Shown here: in pieces, positions 1-8,007 of the stretch
Numbering within the stretch: position 1 is the stretch's first letter
How the letters are laid out: every line of letters starts with the position of its first letter
Source: a virus
Reading direction: 5' to 3' (one strand)
Virus genome (UHGV): UHGV-1356964
Length of the DNA stretch: 10,501 nucleotides
Notes under the pieces: model-generated
Told to the model about the DNA's origin: nothing
The model's input: only the letters and a program-made list of their open reading frames with translations
The model's database searches: none
Program-made: the position numbers and the translations under genes

Positions 1-1025
1 GTAAGGAGAAAATCCTGACCGTCGGAAAATATCCGCTTATGACTTTGCAGGAGGCAAGGGATAAAGCATGGACTGCGAGGAAAGAGATCTCGGTTGGCAT
101 CGATCCGGTAAAGGCGAAATAGGCTTCGTCTAACAACAATTCCTTTAGCGCCATTTACAAGGAATGGTACGAGCACAAGAAGCAAGTCTGGTCAGTAGGA
201 TATGCAAATGAACTTGCAAAAATGTTTGATGACGACATTTTACCCATCATCGGCGGTCTTGAAATTCAGGATATTGAGCCGATGCAACTACTGGAAGTAA
301 TCCGCAGATTTGAAGATCGCGGTGCAATGGAGCGAGCAAATAAAGCCCGCAGAAGATGCGGCGAGGTTTTCCGTTACGCTATTGTCACCGGAAGGGCTAA
401 ATATAACCCGGCACCTGACCTTGCAGACGCCATGAAAGGATACCGCAAGAAGAACTTCCCGTTTCTTCCAGCAGACCAGATCCCTGCATTCAACAAAGCA
501 CTGGCAACATTTTCAGGAAGCATCGTATCGCTCATTGCGACCAAAGTTTTACGCTACACAGCCCTAAGAACGAAAGAGCTTCGTTCCATGCAATGGAAGA
601 ACGTCGATTTTGAAAACAGGATTATCACCATCGACGCCAGTGTGATGAAGGGTCGCAAAATTCATGTGGTTCCTATGTCAGACCAGGTGGTTGAACTTCT
701 CACTACGCTAAGCTCAATCACTAAACCAGTATCAGAGTTTGTTTTTGCCGGTCGCAACGATAAGAAGAAGCCAATCTGCGAGAACGCGGTATTACTTGTG
801 ATCAAACAAATCGGCTATGAAGGTCTGGAAAGCGGTCACGGATTCAGGCATGAATTCAGCACGATTATGAACGAGCACGAATGGCCTGCTGACGCGATTG
901 AGGTGCAACTGGCACATGCCAACGGCGGATCTGTGCGCGGGATTTACAACCATGCTCAGTATCTCGATAAGCGCAGAGAAATGATGCAGTGGTGGGCGGA
1001 CTGGCTTGATGGGAAGGTGGAGTGA
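1..1025 (+). pseudogene. int: Tyrosine integrase (P4/IntS-like), 5' end outside window, interrupted by in-frame TAG at 120-122; longest intact ORF is 222-1025
   Basis: The frame starting at position 3 reads KEKILTVGKYPLMTLQEARDKAWTARKEISVGIDPVKAK, then TAG (120-122), then ASSNNNSFSAIYKEWYEHKKQVWSVGYANELAKMFDDD, continuing without a frame change into the 267-aa ORF 222-1025. That ORF carries tyrosine-recombinase hallmarks (HGFRHEF for the H-x-x-R box, LAHANGGSVRGIYNHAQY with the C-terminal Tyr). Integrase-like sequence on both sides of a single stop in one frame indicates a nonsense mutation, or an amber-suppressed gene, not a true gene end. Stop is TGA at 1023-1025. Confidence 0.75.
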
Positions 1026-1306
1026 TCCACCTTAACTATCGAATGACATAAAGCCTTGCAATCCAGTACAAAGCTTTGCGTTTCTCAGTTTTGCCTCAAG
1101 TGGATACAAATACCACCACCTGATGTGGTACATATCATTACATGTAAATAATTATATGATCACGAACTTACTAAAATATAAACATCACAACCCCATACAT
1201 TTATCACCTAAGTGCTTGACAAATGGCAAATGGTTTTGCAATCTTTCTTTAATTAGCATGATGTTCATGCTACTATTTGTAGAATATTTTTCAAATATGG
1301 TGATAT

Positions 1307-1615
1307 ATGTTTAAATACTTGTTTTTTATACTTACCTTTATGGTTAGTAATTCATCAAGCGCAAAGATAAATGAAATAGTATGTGGTTCTCATCTTGTTA
1401 AAGTTAACACATCAAATGCGTCCAAAGTGCATCTAGATGATGTAGAATTTAGCCTTGAAAAAGAATTTTTTAACGAGGCTCGTTCTCTTGATTATATATC
1501 TATTGATAAAGAAAAATTCACTTTAACTGAGTTTTATTCTGGTGATTATAGTATAACAATACAATCACCAGAAACTAAAAAAAGAGATATTATTATGTGC
1601 AAGTTGTTACGTTAA
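1307..1615 (+). CDS. Hypothetical small secreted protein (102 aa, signal-peptide-like N-terminus), AT-rich cargo
   Basis: ATG at 1307 with GGTGA a few nt upstream. N-terminus MFKYLFFILTFMVSNSSSA looks like a cleavable signal peptide, followed by a hydrophilic ~80-aa domain. A 102-codon open frame in ~28% GC DNA is unlikely by chance because stops are frequent there. The ORF converges on and overlaps the stop of the neighbouring - strand gene (1607-1615), which lowers confidence. Confidence 0.35.
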   Translation: MFKYLFFILTFMVSNSSSAKINEIVCGSHLVKVNTSNASKVHLDDVEFSLEKEFFNEARSLDYISIDKEKFTLTEFYSGDYSITIQSPETKKRDIIMCKLLR

Positions 1616-2725
1616 CGCTTTGTTCTTATTTGAAATTGCACATATCATAGCAATAGCCATATAAAACACAGCAAAAAACGGCAGGCTAATTTTTAAAGAT
1701 GATAGCAACATCATTAGCTTTGCCCTTTTTGTTATTTTAATTTTAATTATAAAAACACAATATAATACTATGCATAATACTCCAAATGGAAGACCGAATA
1801 TTGTAATAAAGTTTCCAAATATAGTCATATCATATAACGACTCATAAAATGATGGCGCAGATTCTGACTTACCAATCAAACCATAACCAAAAATATATAA
1901 ATTTTGATTTCCAATAAAATCAAGAATGGTCTCTATCTTTATATTATTGCTACCATCAGCCCCAGATAGAAATAAAACAATCCTGTCATTTACAATATTT
2001 AAAACAGAAAGATACCCAATCACAAATATTGCTATCACTGGGATAATCATCCTAATTCTCATCATGCCAACACATAGCATGAGAAAGCAAAGAAATATTC
2101 CAACAAATGACAATGTAAACGTCATTGAAACGCATGACAGTAAAAACAAATAATCAATCTTTTTATTAATTGCATATCGTAACGTAATTAACCACGCTGT
2201 TATTCCGCAATATACACTTGGTTCTGCAGTTAGCCCTGTTGGCCTAAACCCAACTCCAGTCATCATATTTCTTGATGGTTCACCACCAATTAGCATAGAG
2301 TAGTCAACAATAGAACCAAATAAAAGTTTCGATACTACTTGAATAAATAAAGAGAGTATGAAAACTACTAGCGCTGCATTTATGGATCTCTCTAAAGTAT
2401 CTTTATCCACCCCCTTACATCCAACATATAACAAGTATGACGACACCACCCAAATTATTACTTTAAGCGTCTGTGATAATAATATCTCATTATGCTTTGA
2501 TATATAAACTTGGATAAATGAACTTATTATAACAATAGATACCACCATTATTATAAATAATAATGACTGATACGTCATTTTACTTACACTTTTTGCGTAT
2601 AAAAAAAGGCATGCGAATGGAAATAGGAATAGTTGTACACCATAAACTGTCACCGGAGATGCTAAATCTATAATTACACCAATTACTGCAATAAAAAGGA
2701 AAAAGGCACTCATGTTAACCACCAT
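1607..2725 (-). CDS. Polytopic inner-membrane protein, Wzy/EpsG-like (candidate O-antigen polymerase / serotype-conversion protein)
   Basis: 372-aa ORF with about 10 hydrophobic helix-length segments separated by short loops, one with GGEPSRNMMTGVGFRPTGLTAEPS. Very low GC. It lacks the N-terminal motif I associate with acyltransferase-3 O-acetylases, and its size fits Wzy-type polymerases (350-450 aa). It sits in the int-tailspike slot that P22-like phages use for O-antigen modification genes. The start may be the second ATG (2711-2713), which has GGTGG 5 nt upstream. Function is inferred from topology and context only. Confidence 0.6.
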   Translation of the reverse strand: MVVNMSAFFLFIAVIGVIIDLASPVTVYGVQLFLFPFACLFLYAKSVSKMTYQSLLFIIMVVSIVIISSFIQVYISKHNEILLSQTLKVIIWVVSSYLLYVGCKGVDKDTLERSINAALVVFILSLFIQVVSKLLFGSIVDYSMLIGGEPSRNMMTGVGFRPTGLTAEPSVYCGITAWLITLRYAINKKIDYLFLLSCVSMTFTLSFVGIFLCFLMLCVGMMRIRMIIPVIAIFVIGYLSVLNIVNDRIVLFLSGADGSNNIKIETILDFIGNQNLYIFGYGLIGKSESAPSFYESLYDMTIFGNFITIFGLPFGVLCIVLYCVFIIKIKITKRAKLMMLLSSLKISLPFFAVFYMAIAMICAISNKNKALT

Positions 2726-2742
2726 GATTTTGAATTTGCGAT

Positions 2743-2771
2743 ATTGTACAATGAGCGCCTTTGCTATGCAA
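2743..2771 (-). promoter_or_regulatory. Candidate sigma70 promoter for the Wzy-like gene
   Basis: On the - strand: -35 TTGCAT (reverse complement of 2766-2771), 17-bp spacer, -10 TACAAT (reverse complement of 2743-2748), directly after the tailspike stop and 18-30 nt upstream of the candidate starts. The -10 lies inside a perfect 10-bp palindrome ATTGTACAAT (2743-2752). Confidence 0.3.
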
Positions 2772-2772
2772 T

Positions 2773-4821
2773 TTATAAATATTTCAAGACAAACATCATG
2801 AGCTCATCATATCTTACACCATATCTGTCACCGAAATCAGTTTCGTCTTTGCACCAGAACCCATACTTTTCAGGATTTAACCCATTATTGCGCATTATGA
2901 CGCCAACCGTTTGCGCCCCGACACCAAAATGATAACGCGCGTTACCACCTTTACTTCTGATGCTCTCTTTCAGCTTGTACCTGTAAATACATTTTCTTAT
3001 TTCATTTGCCGCTTGTTTTTCTTTCAATAAAAGATCATCTGAACATCCGCATGGTTCTTTCATTGATTCATCTGATGTAGTTATTACACCTGTGGTAGAA
3101 TATATTGCTGACCATCTTTTTGTTGTATCGCCTAATGCCGTATCTGAGTCACCTTCAGGAGCTAATCTATTATAGCCACTAATAAGAAGGTCATTTTTTG
3201 GGAGCTCTTTTGATACTCCACCATCAGTTGATGTTAATTTAACGCCTCTTGTTCCAGGTATACTTTTTATTTCAATGCCTGCCTCTGATGTTCCTATTAT
3301 CTGTAGATCGGAATTTTTATTTCTACCATCCTGAAATGGAAGTTCAAAAACATTAGATGTAAATCTCCAATCCGTATCAGAATAAAGCTCGGCTGGTGAC
3401 GAGTTATCGCGCTGTATTATAATGGCACCTTTTCCGCTATCTCGTCTCCGACAACCGGCAATGTTTGCTTGGTTGGGATCCATATTTGAGCTAACCAACA
3501 CACCATCAAACTGAGATATGCTTTCGTAATTATTAGCTCCTTGCCGCTGTGCACTTTCACTTATATAAACCCATGCCCAATCAAAATGGTTCTCATAACT
3601 TCCAACGTTCAGGTCAATCTGATACGGACGAGTGCACAACTCGCCAAAAAACCCACGGAAGTGGATATTACCTGCCACTGATGTATCACTGTTCACCGTC
3701 TTAACAATACGTACTGCGCATGGCACGTCTGCAGGCCAATTGCCCAGAGTGATATTCTCGGAGTGGCCACCAAACACGCGCAAAGAGTCGGTAGACTCAA
3801 TCCAAAAACTACAATTTCCCGTGGCATGATGGGGGTTATATATATGTATGCGCGTATTATTATTATCGCCACTGACGCTGCGTTCAAAATAAAACCCACA
3901 GTCTACACGCTCAAAGTTAGGGTTCATAATTGAGTGGTAGTACGAGCCGCTGTTTTCACCTGATACTGTTGGTCCCGGCTTGAATTTCAGTCCGACTTTT
4001 ACTCCCCTTGCACGTGGATTCTCCATTACACAAAATTGCTGTGACACACGCATGGTTGCCTGAGATTCGTCTTCAGGAGCAATGGCGTAGGCAATAACGT
4101 CAGAGTAGTTATCTGGGTTAATTACTACAGGATTGATTATGTGGCAGAAATCATGGCTCATTCTTAAACATGTAATTCCCGAGTCTCCTGCTACGATTGT
4201 TGTACCAGTAAAATCAATATACCGTGTAGATGTAACATCCTGTGTATACGAGCCATCGAACTTCATTACAAGACTTTGTGTTATGCGATATATCGCACCT
4301 ACTCTCCCTGTTAATTTACCAAAAGGTATTCCTTCGAGCCATGCTAATGCTGATAACATAGATGTGGTGTCGTCAACAATCCCATCACCAATTGCCCCAA
4401 ACTCTTCAAATGTTTTAATGGCTGTCGCCCGATGCGCTATCTGATCAATTGTTGAGCCATATTTTGTTAGACTCTGCCTTAGCTGATCAGGATCATACTT
4501 CAGCACGTTTGGAAAATAGAACTGCTGTGCACCATACGCATCATAAACAGCCATAGAATGACCTTGCACCGTAACAAACTTGGCAATCTGTCCGTTATAT
4601 ACAGGGTAACCAGCAGAATTGATAATGATTGGTTGCGAAACAGGAATGTGAGATCCGTCTTCGTTCTCTACATAAACCTGAATCTGGTTTTCAGGATTTA
4701 CCGGGTCAGTATCAATTTTACCGATATAAATTTTGCCATTGGCTACGGCTTTAAAAGAACGCGCCATAGTGAAGAGTTGCGAAGGCATACTCACTACAAC
4801 ATTGGCTGTAATGTCTGTCAT
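2773..4821 (-). CDS. Tailspike protein (P22/Sf6-type head-binding domain, beta-helix-like receptor-binding domain, C-terminal intramolecular-chaperone-like domain)
   Basis: The N-terminus [61 protein letters not shown]...VLKYDPDQ matches, from memory, the conserved head-binding domain of P22-family tailspikes. The central region is Gly/Asn/Ser/Thr/Asp-rich with many aromatics, typical of a beta-helix glycanase. The C-terminus has TSDESMK, fitting the S-D-x-x-x-K Ser/Lys motif of self-cleaving chaperone domains. GGAG lies 8 nt upstream of the ATG at 4819-4821. Confidence 0.93.
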
Positions 4822-4877: not shown

Positions 4878-4902
4878 ATAAAAAACCCAGCCGAAGCTGG
4901 GT
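4878..4902 (-). terminator. Intrinsic terminator (- strand) upstream of the tailspike gene
   Basis: The - strand transcript would form a 7-bp stem (ACCCAGC / GCUGGGU) with a 4-nt loop, followed by UUUUUAU (reverse complement of + 4878-4884). On the + strand the stem is followed by CGTTGCG, so it is not a + strand terminator. Confidence 0.55.
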
Positions 4903-4953
4903 CGTTGCGTTGGTTATCTGTCAGTAGTTATGTACTGGCTGAAGGATTTGTAC

Positions 4954-4983
4954 AAAAAACCACCTGACGGTGGGTTAATTTTT
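4954..4983. terminator. Hairpin with flanking A and T runs (bidirectional terminator candidate; stronger on - strand)
   Basis: Stem CCACC (4960-4964), loop TGAC, stem GGTGG (4969-4973). On the + strand it is followed by GTTAATTTTT; on the - strand by UUUUUUG (reverse complement of AAAAAA at 4954-4959). The stem is short (5 bp). Confidence 0.45.
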
Positions 4984-5066: not shown

Positions 5067-5246
5067 ATGGCGAAAAAACCAGGTGAAAACACAGGAAAAA
5101 ACGGCGGAATATACCAAGAAGTTGGCCCACGCGGCGGTAAGAAAGACAATTTTGCCACCGTCAAGGACAACGAAAGGCTTCCACCAACAACAAAGCCAGG
5201 TCATGGCTGGGTATTGGATAAGCGAACTCCAGACAGCAAAAAGTAA
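5067..5246 (+). CDS. Small basic Gly/Lys/Pro-rich protein (59 aa), function unknown
   Basis: ATG at 5067 with GAGG 6 nt upstream; the track's 5052 start is probably an upstream in-frame ATG without a ribosome-binding site. Product: MAKKPGENTGKNGGIYQEVGPRGGKKDNFATVKDNERLPPTTKPGHGWVLDKRTPDSKK. A + strand terminator follows immediately (5253-5275). I could not place the family from memory. Confidence 0.6.
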   Translation: MAKKPGENTGKNGGIYQEVGPRGGKKDNFATVKDNERLPPTTKPGHGWVLDKRTPDSKK

Positions 5247-5252
5247 TAATCA

Positions 5253-5275
5253 AGCCGGTTCACTCCGGCTTTTTG
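5253..5275 (+). terminator. Intrinsic terminator after the small basic-protein gene (overlaps the 3' end of the convergent peptidase gene)
   Basis: Stem AGCCGG (5253-5258), 6-nt loop TTCACT, stem CCGGCT (5265-5270), followed by TTTT (5271-5274), 7 nt after the TAA at 5244-5246. On the - strand the same hairpin is followed by a moderately U-rich tract, so it may also serve the convergent gene. Confidence 0.6.
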
Positions 5276-5625
5276 ATATGTTGCTCGCAGAACTCAACAA
5301 GCCTGCTCATTAAGTAGCAGTAAGTCTCGTTGGCTCTTCCTGGTTCAACATCAACACCTACCCTTGAGCAGATATCGAATGCCATGTGAGCGCACTCATG
5401 GGCAATAGTAGATAGTTTGCCATTGAACACGCCTATCACATGCAAAACACCATTCTCGCTACTCATTGTATGAGACGCTCCGTTGGCGTCCGAGTCATGC
5501 ACGTCAACGCCAAGTTTTTGATGCAGGCGTTGCCATTCTGGAAAGTCTCTACAAAACACAATTGTACCGCTCTCAAAGAGCGGAACGAGCATCTTTGGTA
5601 CGTTTCCAATGTTAACTTTTTTCAT
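5260..5625 (-). CDS. Small HEXXH zinc-metallopeptidase-like protein, ImmA/IrrE (DUF955)-like, 121 aa
   Basis: The motif KLSTIAHECAHMAF (x-T-[LI]-A-H-E-x-x-H) is followed about 15-25 residues later by VEPGRANETYCYLMS, which resembles the E-x-x-A-N-x-[FY]-x-x-x-L-[LM] segment after the HEXXH in ImmA/IrrE-type peptidases. AGGA lies 4 nt upstream of the ATG. There is no adjacent helix-turn-helix partner gene. Confidence 0.75.
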   Translation of the reverse strand: MKKVNIGNVPKMLVPLFESGTIVFCRDFPEWQRLHQKLGVDVHDSDANGASHTMSSENGVLHVIGVFNGKLSTIAHECAHMAFDICSRVGVDVEPGRANETYCYLMSRLVEFCEQHIKKPE

Positions 5626-5659
5626 GGTATCCTGCGAAAAACTAAGGAGAGTTAATTAT

Positions 5660-6145
5660 ATGAAAAAATCACTGTTAATTATCCCGCTTCTGCTGGCTGG
5701 GTGCGCAAAAGTAAGCGACTATCAGGCAAGTTGCGAGCAACGCTATCCAAAGCTTAGCGATATGGCTAATTGCCTTGATGCCAGCTTGAAGAACGACTCT
5801 CGCATGGCATCAGCACCAACACCTAAGCTGTATGTCCTTGCTGCGAAGATGCTCGGGCAAGGTGTCGATGAAGGCAAGATAAGTGACACACAGGCAAGAC
5901 TTGAACTTCAGAATCTTTATGTTCAATTACAAAGCCAAGAACAAGCACAACAAATAGCACAAAGCCAAGCATTCCAGCAGGCTTTATTGAATTATCAGGC
6001 TGTAAACACAATGCAAGCGATCGAGCAAAAAGCGCGCCAGCCTGTTATAACTCAACCTTACCCAACACGCGTTGACACATATACAAACTGCAATTCAGGA
6101 TTTGGAAACACGGTAACATGCAACAGTAGCAGTAATATCAGGTAG
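5660..6145 (+). CDS. Lipoprotein (161 aa; lipobox LAGC, Ala at +2, Gln-rich middle region)
   Basis: ATG at 5660 preceded by AAGGAG (5644-5649). N-terminus MKKSLLIIPLLLAGCAKVS is a classical type II signal peptide with lipobox L-A-G-C. The track's longer ORF from 5609 would overlap the divergent peptidase gene start and lacks a ribosome-binding site. The mature protein is Gln/Ala-rich with a Cys-containing C-terminal tail (TNCNSGFGNTVTCNSSSNIR). Confidence 0.8.
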   Translation: MKKSLLIIPLLLAGCAKVSDYQASCEQRYPKLSDMANCLDASLKNDSRMASAPTPKLYVLAAKMLGQGVDEGKISDTQARLELQNLYVQLQSQEQAQQIAQSQAFQQALLNYQAVNTMQAIEQKARQPVITQPYPTRVDTYTNCNSGFGNTVTCNSSSNIR

Positions 6146-6159
6146 TTATATCTTATCTT

Positions 6160-8007
6160 TTATTGCTGTTCTGCTGTAATTTGGCTTGAAAGTATAGGGC
6201 GTATCGCATTTGCAGCATTATTTAGCGCTCTTTCATAGGCTGGTGTTCCTGCTTTGGTGTTTGCCAGACGTAAGAGAGCATTCCTTGCTGCTTTGGACTC
6301 ATACAAGCGCATCATTGCACCGAAACCAGCCTCAAGCCCCATTGATACGCCAAGAGTCGCAGTTGCGCCAATCGTCCTTATCCTGTTGGCTTGCGATTGC
6401 CCCGTCTGAGTTACTACATTTGCGGTGTCTGACCTTGCTGTTTGCTGTAGAACTTCATGAAGAGCATCAAGCTCTTTCATGTGCTTTCCTGAAAAAATAG
6501 TGTTGTAAATTTCACCGCCTGACTGAGATTTCAGCTTATTAACTTCAGTGATGAACTTGGCTGGAGAGTCACCGGCCTTTTCCGCTATTTTGCTGACGTA
6601 AGCTGCACGCATAGCATCTTTCCCTTTATCATCCAGTGCGCTCCAGATTCGTTTCACGTCAGATGGTTTTCTGCTTAATACAACGGTATTTATAAGTTCA
6701 GGACTGGCTTCACTGCTTGCCTTGTTGAGCTTGTTAGCAATGTTTTTATTAAGCACCTTATTATAAACGTTTGCATAATCGGAATTTGCTTTAAGGTATT
6801 TTGCTGCGTCTGATGCACCGAGGTTTTTTGCAACTGCGTTACGAAGATCTTTTGACATTGCATTCTCTACCATATTGGTAGCTGCTTTTGCCTGGTTGGG
6901 GAAGACCATAGCATCTCCCTGAACATTAGATCTAAATGCTGTTCTGTGCTGACGCAAGAGATCAAACGTAACATCCAAATCAGTTGCAGGGTTTGCTAAT
7001 TCTTCACGTAGGTTACGCAAGGATGTAAGCAGGCTTTGATTGGCAGACGTCCCAAGCCGTTCCTGTCTTGCGATCGCTGTATTCAGAGCATTCATGGTAT
7101 TTGTGGTATCAACTGCGGCATTACCCATTTTATTGGTAACGTCATTGATAACAGCGCCAGCGGCATCCTTCCGTCCCCTTAACGTGGTGGTCAGAGATTT
7201 CACCACATCATCCGGGTTGTACTCACCAAAACGGTCAAAATAATTACTTACCAACTTACTACGCGTTGCATATTGCTCCGCTCGCTTTGAGCCTGTCCCG
7301 AGCAAAGCCCCCTCGGCATCCTGAGTTAGGCCGCGAGTGAAAGCATTTTTCGGCGGGATAACATCAGATGTCATTGGTGTCACGCCCATCGATTCTGATG
7401 TGGCAATTTTCTTCGCCACTTCTGGCGCAATATCACCTTTTATAGCCGTTATTCCACGCCCTATTCCCTTTGCTGCTGCGGAAAGAACACCCTGAGTGGC
7501 AAGGTTAACTCCGGCATTTTTAGCTGCATTTTGTGCGAAATCGCCTTTCTGATTTGTGGCCTCTGCCAGTGAGCCAATAGCCATGCTTCCTGCCGTTCCA
7601 ACTCCTGGAACTAAATACCCACCAATTGTTTCACCGGCTTGCGCGTAAGGGTCTGTCGGTCGATCGACAGGGCGATAAACATCATCCAAAACCTTGGGGC
7701 CACCAAGCCCCTGGCTGATTGCATTAATCAGGCTTGCGCCGCCCTGTAATACGTCGAATGGTATATTTACCAGACCACGACCTGCCTGTTCTGCAATTTG
7801 CCCTGCACTTTGACCACCAGTGAGCCAATCGCCAGCTTGTTGCATCAATGAAGGTTCTTCACGTGCTGGTTCATTATTGGCCTGATTAACTGTTTGTTGC
7901 TGAACAGCCTGACCAGCAAAATACTCATCAATGGCGGTGCCAATATCTTCCGTGCTCGTACCATCAGGAAAGGTAAATGTCTTACCGTTTGCAGTTACTT
8001 TCATCAT
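6160..8007 (-). CDS. Ejection (DNA-injection) protein, P22 gp16-like
   Basis: 615-aa ORF, last gene of a tightly packed - strand operon. Its start overlaps the stop of the upstream gene (ATGATGA at 8001-8007). Size and position match P22 gene 16 (609 aa); composition is Ala/Gly/Asn/Thr-rich as expected for ejection proteins. The assignment is by synteny and size, not sequence identity. Confidence 0.88.

Follow-up and report, generated by a model that had tools for sequence, protein, structure and literature searches.

Which kind of protein is encoded by the small gene between the ejection genes and the tailspike gene of P22-like phages, and is it tied to antirepression? We examined this question in a stretch of 10,501 nucleotides (hereafter, the window) that forms the right end of a prophage of the P22-like (Lederbergvirus) type. 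Its minus strand carries, in this order, gp14 (DUF2824), gp7, gp20, a gp16-type ejection protein, hkcC and a tailspike with the P22 head-binding domain; the plus strand carries a lipoprotein gene, orf59a and a short integrase gene. An earlier note on this DNA had read the ORF between gp16 and the tailspike as an ImmA/IrrE-like metallopeptidase lying where P22 encodes its antirepressor, without the helix-turn-helix (HTH) repressor with which such peptidases are paired. The ORF (121 aa, minus strand) and its HECAH...ANE motif are real, and the neighbors are orf59a, the lipoprotein gene, gp16 and the tailspike gene, so that no HTH partner is adjacent.

The coding sequence occupies positions 5260..5625 of the minus strand, and the protein begins with MKKVNIGNVP. 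It is 98.3% identical to HkcC of coliphage HK620, and an ORF of P22 is equally close (98.3% protein identity). The same ORF is present in P22 and many P22-like Salmonella phages, in which it is often left without annotation or labeled hypothetical. Judged by its sequence, the ORF is hkcC, a conserved accessory gene in P22-like phages. The position between gene 16 and the tailspike gene, the convergent orf59a and the terminator shared with it are the same in HK620, P22 and the window, and hkcC itself shows no material difference from that of either phage. In contrast, the divergent slot of the window holds a lipoprotein gene, not hkcB or sieA.

HkcC of the window matched the profile of phrog_1365 (the HkcC / Orf129 family, function unknown) over its full length (residues 1-121; E=2.6e-39), as did 86 of 86 aligned relatives; phrog_1365 has no Pfam model. 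All 88 of the 88 close full-length copies of hkcC were intact with a pN/pS of 0.04, and their 42 DNA alleles encoded only 9 protein variants. These values indicate that hkcC is a real gene under strong purifying selection. An exhaustive HMMER search for the family yielded 278 representative clusters; almost all of these proteins stand alone and are 105-140 aa long. Pfam detected no domain in ten longer members. Two single-sequence oddities are probably deletion or assembly chimeras rather than real fusion architectures. One (P0027) is an HkcC fragment with PF10548, which we take to be the C-terminal domain of the P22 antirepressor, and the other (P0030) is the N-terminus of PF04492, presumably a replication-protein domain, joined to the C-terminus of HkcC.

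P22 and its relatives are model phages, and a 1.4-kb query across the hkcC region matched 1024 of 5426 complete E. coli genomes, about one fifth; among the matches listed, the small genes beneath the query were annotated as hypothetical proteins. In this region of P22, hkcC and 59a are listed with function unknown (PMC2629481; PMC4837284), and our literature search (hkcC, orf59a, YjzC, phage metalloprotease anti-defence) found no functional study. The gene is already named, and the zincin assignment that we propose appears to be unannotated so far.

We asked whether HkcC belongs to the ImmA/IrrE family. The earlier note had called the motif and the segment downstream of it typical of these peptidases, a statement that was borne out by no search we ran. 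It had also named an HMM comparison with DUF955 / Peptidase_M78 as its check, an empty result counting against it, and this comparison was empty: PF06114 (Peptidase_M78/DUF955) did not match HkcC of the window at E<=1 in Pfam and matched none of its 86 relatives at E<=0.1. As a control, the ImmA-type 'metallo-protease' orf122 of phage Sfi21, which is of similar size (122 aa), matched PF06114 at 6e-14. The Sfi21 gene adjoins an HTH gene, orf127, which we take to encode a cI-like repressor. No HTH gene was found next to the HkcC-family gene in P22, HK620, ST64T, mEp044, phCDa or the metagenomic loci. When the HkcC profile was aligned to Peptidase_M78 with hhalign, the probability was 15% over 27 columns that covered the edge strand and HExxH only, and viral models labeled IrrE superimposed on HkcC with TM scores of 0.28-0.30. 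We concluded that HkcC is not a detectable member of the ImmA/IrrE family and is not paired with an HTH repressor.

HkcC does share with ICEBs1 ImmA and Sfi21 orf122 the character of a small HExxH protein of zinc-protease type from a temperate phage, and in P22 it lies near lysogeny-control genes. It differs from them in having no match in sequence, profile or fold, in the absence of an adjacent co-transcribed HTH repressor, and in its orientation with the late genes rather than inside a lysogeny operon. A genuine M78 peptidase that had drifted past detection and acted on a repressor encoded elsewhere in the prophage would share the HExxH-plus-Glu logic and the small size of orf122, all of these proteins lying within the wider zincin superfamily. 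Given the results of PF06114, hhalign and the IrrE-labeled models, together with the absence of an HTH neighbor in every context examined, we consider such drift very improbable.

The part of the earlier reading that stood is that of a zinc peptidase. The HExxH motif is encoded at positions 5386..5400 of the minus strand (codons H76-E77-C78-A79-H80, HECAH) and falls in a predicted helix (residues 71-88). The predicted third metal ligand, E100, is encoded at 5326..5328 of the same strand, within the ANET motif (ANETYCY segment) at the start of a helix that spans residues 100-116. In an alignment of 86 HkcC homologues whose identity to the window query ranged from 24 to 74%, the only invariant columns were H76, E77, H80 and E100; G49, G90 and Y104 were nearly invariant. 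By our estimate, a random 121-aa protein contains HExxH by chance in about 0.3% of cases. E100 lies 20 residues past H80, the same distance as that from H146 to E166 in thermolysin, so that HkcC resembles thermolysin-type gluzincins and minigluzincins in the spacing of HExxH and Glu and in the 'NE' context. A phmmer search paired the HkcC motifs with those of thermolysin and neutral protease, a weak match that was not significant (E=0.1).

The AlphaFold2 model of HkcC, built on the family alignment, had a pLDDT of 94.2 and a pTM of 0.87. It consists of two strands, a helix (residues 28-37), strands 49-56 and 59-66, the helix 71-88 that bears HExxH and the helix 100-116 that bears E100, that is, b-b-a-b-b-a(HExxH)-a(E100). 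HExxH on one helix and a Glu on the next, the hallmark of zincins of the gluzincin type, are thus seen in both the alignment and the model, and the modeled layout is compatible with the zincin core as set out in PMC5512222. Against predicted viral structures (BFVD), the model gave 26 matches at E<=1e-3 with TM scores up to 0.87. The matched models come from many unrelated phages, of which we believe several to be virulent. The few labeled matches were named SprT-like, metalloprotease or PolyVal metallopeptidase, and the best model with the SprT-like label reached a TM of 0.71.

Membership in the SprT-like family itself was not seen. HkcC of the window had no match to PF10263 in Pfam and none to the SprT zinc ribbon, and 16 of the 86 relatives matched the SprT-like model weakly (best E 1e-4). 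In a control search, E. coli SprT matched PF10263 at 2.4e-23 and the Zn ribbon as well. As judged from the predicted structures, the nearest labeled relatives in fold are SprT-like proteins and the metallopeptidases of polyvalent proteins. In its predicted fold, HkcC would share with these Peptidase MA-type zincins an HExxH helix followed by a Glu-ligand helix, a small beta sheet and a backing helix, but the 121-aa protein is not fused to other domains and is without the SprT zinc ribbon. HkcC may therefore be classed as a putative zincin, a gluzincin-type metallopeptidase-like protein. The family would be a distinct minimal variant within the known zincin superfamily, and phrog_1365 would rank among the smallest zincins.

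In the reading that we prefer, and to which we assign a probability of roughly 0.6, HkcC works in the cytoplasm as a minimal, stand-alone zincin peptidase, and hkcC is an accessory gene of the late operon. In the proposed mechanism, H76 and H80 of the active-site helix and E100 of the next helix would hold one Zn2+, and E77 would activate a water molecule. The peptide substrate would lie along the edge strand (residues 59-66), above the helix. By inspection, HkcC has no signal peptide, and it contains five cysteines; from these features we would expect it to act in the cytoplasm. A strictly conserved site of zinc-protease type under purifying selection offers a direct handle on the function of hkcC, and the P22 immunity I region would be mapped more completely once the substrate is identified.

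The flanks of hkcC bear on its expression. A hairpin at 5252..5271, detected by a terminator scan, would act as a bidirectional terminator on both strands, common to the convergent hkcC and orf59a. The hairpin reaches into the final hkcC codons; its HK620 counterpart is annotated as tORF59A, and an equivalent hairpin lies between the HkcC-family gene and orf59a in a second phage lineage (L089). At the other end, a conserved PsieA-type promoter with its 5' UTR and RBS extends over 5599..5659 on the plus strand, as placed by an offset estimate from the P22 PsieA annotation and by alignment. This stretch, nearly invariant in the alignment of the window, HK620 and P22, reaches into the first hkcC codons and drives the cargo gene on the opposite strand. 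On the hkcC strand, a promoter scan found no promoter-like site, the scan being a simple and insensitive one. Genes 7, 20, 16 and 9 have the same orientation as hkcC, for which we found no convincing separate promoter; we therefore infer that HkcC is most probably translated from the antiterminated late transcript in the lytic cycle. The argument for late expression is one from orientation, and hkcC may also have a promoter that is expressed in the prophage.

The slot between gene 16 and hkcC always contained one small gene on the opposite strand (5599-6145 in the window, and the loci L007-L097). In most loci examined, the start codon of this cargo gene lay 31 nt from that of hkcC, behind the shared PsieA-type promoter and 5' UTR. 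At least 11 apparently unrelated cargo genes occupied the slot, including those for SieA, HkcB and a 161-aa lipoprotein; others encode 62-149 aa. Most cargo proteins begin, by inspection, with a hydrophobic segment resembling a transmembrane helix or signal peptide. The slot has the appearance of a hot-swap site at which genes for envelope or superinfection-exclusion functions are exchanged. In the window, its occupant at 5660..6145 on the plus strand, where P22 has sieA and HK620 has hkcB, encodes the lipoprotein (161 aa, lipobox LLAGC, phrog_6067 at 4e-109). A requirement of HkcC for exclusion by SieA can be dismissed: exclusion is obtained with sieA and the 85 bp of DNA upstream of it (PMC10461980).

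The earlier note had also suggested that the gene might replace Ant. In P22, the order is 16, sieA, hkcC, orf59a, mnt, arc, ant and 9. In HK620, gene 16 is followed by hkcB (opposite strand), hkcC, the bidirectional terminator, HkcD (opposite strand), remnants of the mnt and ant terminators, and gene 9. The window shows the HK620-type deletion of mnt, arc and ant between gene 16 and the tailspike gene. A terminator scan located two hairpins at 4884..4973, between the tailspike gene and orf59a, as a remnant of the deleted mnt/ant region; the homologous hairpins of HK620 are annotated as the remnants tANT and tMNT, and here the window matches HK620. The statement that the gene sits where P22 encodes its antirepressor therefore holds insofar as the window, like HK620, is without mnt, arc and ant, but P22 has hkcC besides mnt-arc-ant. 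Of 89 P22-like loci with hkcC, 21 also held a P22-type ant, 53 had mnt/arc only and 15 had none of mnt, arc and ant. Because P22 has hkcC together with Ant, as do these 21 loci, a functional replacement of Ant by HkcC is ruled out. Together with the convergent orf59a, hkcC is part of the conserved core of a variable 'ant moron' region.

The convergent partner orf59a (HkcD; 5067..5246, plus strand) encodes a 59-aa protein of the YjzC family (phrog_3202, 1.3e-31). Its homologues are named YjzC family by UniRef, and its match to PF14168 was weak. The AlphaFold2 model of Orf59a (pLDDT 87.6) shows three main strands, as in a small all-beta protein. GPRGG is invariant in the YjzC family, PPT is kept in nearly all members, and Orf59a is 60-80% identical across prophages of Enterobacterales, far more conserved than HkcC. 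A tail-to-tail arrangement with an HkcC-family gene, the two genes having a hairpin terminator in common, was found in five contexts: P22-like phages of E. coli and Salmonella, P22-like prophages of Morganella, the L089 lineage, another locus (L005) and Xenorhabdus. In Xenorhabdus, identity to HkcC has fallen to about 30% or less, and that to Orf59a is still 76%. The P22 copy of orf59a is located between mnt and its terminator and is therefore cotranscribed with mnt and probably expressed in lysogens. In prophages of Salmonella bongori (L129-L131), an orf59a homologue was found without an HkcC-family gene, between the lysis genes and a GmrSD_N / HEPN pair, in surroundings that resemble a defence island.

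Further, hkcC and its convergent orf59a are followed by an Ant/KilA-type gene in three phage groups, namely the P22-like phages, the L089 lineage and a Xenorhabdus prophage. In the L089 lineage, this module stands directly after a Q-like antiterminator gene, and the Ant-like protein scored 3.6e-49; in the Xenorhabdus prophage (L132), it comes after holin, lysozyme and Rz genes and precedes a KilA-N/P63C gene. The recurrence suggests a functional tie between the cassette and the gene that follows it. An antirepressor role, as the earlier note had proposed, is again conceivable in view of this recurrence, but the tie is not obligate: the 15 P22-like loci mentioned above have no mnt, arc or ant, and in the Orf129 clade the gene lies beside the terminase. 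A tie of HkcC to antirepressor modules is thus possible in a non-obligate form.

HkcC might then be a protease of the antirepressor module, an unrelated zincin that follows an ImmA-like logic and cleaves Orf59a, Mnt, Arc, Ant or a prophage repressor so as to control or supplement antirepression. The recurring gene order in three separate groups speaks for this proposal, as do the cotranscription of orf59a with mnt in P22 and the persistence of the orf59a pairing where HkcC identity is about 30% or less. On the other hand, hkcC remains intact and about 98% identical in the 15 of 89 loci without mnt, arc and ant, among them the window and HK620, and it is intact in 11 P22-like loci (of the 89) that have no orf59a. 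The Orf129 clade has no orf59a, and an Ant-like neighbor was found there only once. Further, a homologue is present in a virulent N4-like phage, which has no lysogeny, the convergent hkcC is not co-transcribed with orf59a, and neither Pfam nor hhalign found a relationship with M78. To our knowledge, decades of immI genetics have defined mnt, arc, ant and sar and needed no further gene, which also counts against such a protease. We regard this proposal as unlikely.

In a bolder version, hkcC, orf59a and the Ant/KilA-type gene would form a mobile three-part 'anti-immunity' module, in which antirepression is controlled or complemented through proteolysis by a minimal zincin that is no relative of ImmA. 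Possible targets for removal are the YjzC-family protein and a repressor of the RHH or C2 type. If true, the protease-switch logic of ImmA/ImmR would have been invented independently inside one of the best-studied regulatory regions of any phage. We mention this version as a speculation with rather little probability.

The pairing of hkcC with orf59a could alternatively reflect a two-gene conflict module (toxin and antidote, or protease and inhibitor) that the prophage would express to keep out other phages. The convergent pair is kept in five contexts, it is flanked by the hot-swap slot for envelope/exclusion-type genes such as sieA, and Orf59a, predicted to fold into a small beta protein, varies far less than HkcC. 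However, the genes are convergent and form no operon, each of them occurs without the other, and the Orf129 clade is without orf59a. In HK620, orf59a (L001, 4067-4246; also L085) carries a premature stop codon (GAA to TAA) after residue 17 of 59 while the adjoining hkcC is intact, which argues against an essential antidote. The earlier idea of an exclusion system formed with the neighboring genes found no backing in PADLOC, which gave no meaningful match for HkcC or the genes around it. NCBIfam scans likewise returned nothing meaningful, the lantibiotic matches being below threshold and probably due to chance. Further, sieA alone suffices for exclusion (PMC10461980). A conflict module of this type is quite improbable.

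The genomic contexts of the family speak for the late-operon setting of our preferred reading. In temperate phages, the HkcC-family gene was always co-oriented with the late genes, and its start and stop codons were often a few bases from, or overlapped, the next late gene. In P22-like phages, hkcC comes after genes 7, 20 and 16, which encode ejection proteins. In the Orf129 clade, the gene lies between the lysis cassette and the gene for the terminase small subunit (ST64T and 4 of 5 metagenomic loci tested); it is directly upstream of the small-subunit gene in four loci, with one ORF between them in ST64T, and gaps to the next gene are often 3-6 nt. The mEp044 homologue is likewise upstream of terminase. 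In another context, the gene is located between the adaptor and head-closure genes, with overlapping stop and start codons, and in others it comes after a MuF-like head gene or a major-tail gene.

Some of these contexts would suit an effector of invasion or counter-defence. HkcC would then be a stand-alone peptidase of the polyvalent type, packaged or made very early, that cleaves a defence protein of the host or a resident prophage or processes a protein inside the head. The position directly after the ejection genes 7, 20 and 16 fits such a role, as do a locus (L099) in which the HkcC-type gene follows and overlaps a MuF-like head-morphogenesis gene, another (L005) in which a gene for an internal virion protein lies upstream, the first place in a rightward cluster of small genes in phage phCDa, and the 'PolyVal Metallopeptidase' model among the BFVD matches. 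Domains of this kind have been proposed to be processors or effectors delivered with DNA (PMC5512222). However, the internal ejected proteins given in the papers that we consulted (including PMC8402733) are only gp7, gp16 and gp20, with no mention of HkcC; a 2026 preprint abstract reports a fourth. The N-terminal trimming of gp7 is done by the host protease OpdA (PMC8402733), no PADLOC or anti-defence annotation was found, and the evidence from neighborhoods is heterogeneous. We consider delivery or very early action as an effector improbable. Nor is HkcC the protease that cuts 20 residues from the start of gp7, a step carried out by OpdA of the host (PMC8402733).

The homologue in phCDa, which is virulent and N4-like, is the first gene of its rightward small-gene cluster. 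From the genome layout, we take this cluster to consist of early genes. Since the homologue opens an apparently early cluster, the timing of expression may differ between phages. The alternatives considered above are not exclusive of the zincin reading, with whose biochemical core they are compatible. The recurrent pairing with a YjzC-family protein, and neighbors that serve antirepression, exclusion and ejection, suggest that HkcC takes part in conflicts between phage and host or between phages.

Several further observations were made in the family and the window. In three lambdoid loci (L105, at 6355-6993, L118 and L121), a second HExxH protein is encoded 4 nt after the HkcC-like gene and upstream of terminase. 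It matches Pfam PF18894, 'Putative phage metallopeptidase', and bears the PHROG label 'transposase', so that two putative metallopeptidases would stand in tandem.

The integrase ORF of the window (222-1025) encodes 267 aa and begins within the central domain (Phage_int_M positions 28-96); the N-terminal part is therefore apparently absent, and the gene may be truncated. Positions 1000-3000 form a block of low GC content (27-35%, compared with about 45-50% elsewhere). The block encodes a 102-aa protein with a hydrophobic N-terminus (1307-1615) and a 372-aa hydrophobic, apparently multi-pass membrane protein (1607-2725, minus strand); for the latter, comparison with HK620 hkcF revealed no similarity, and neither Pfam nor PHROG yielded a family. 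The block occupies the position at which P22-like phages carry genes for O-antigen modification.
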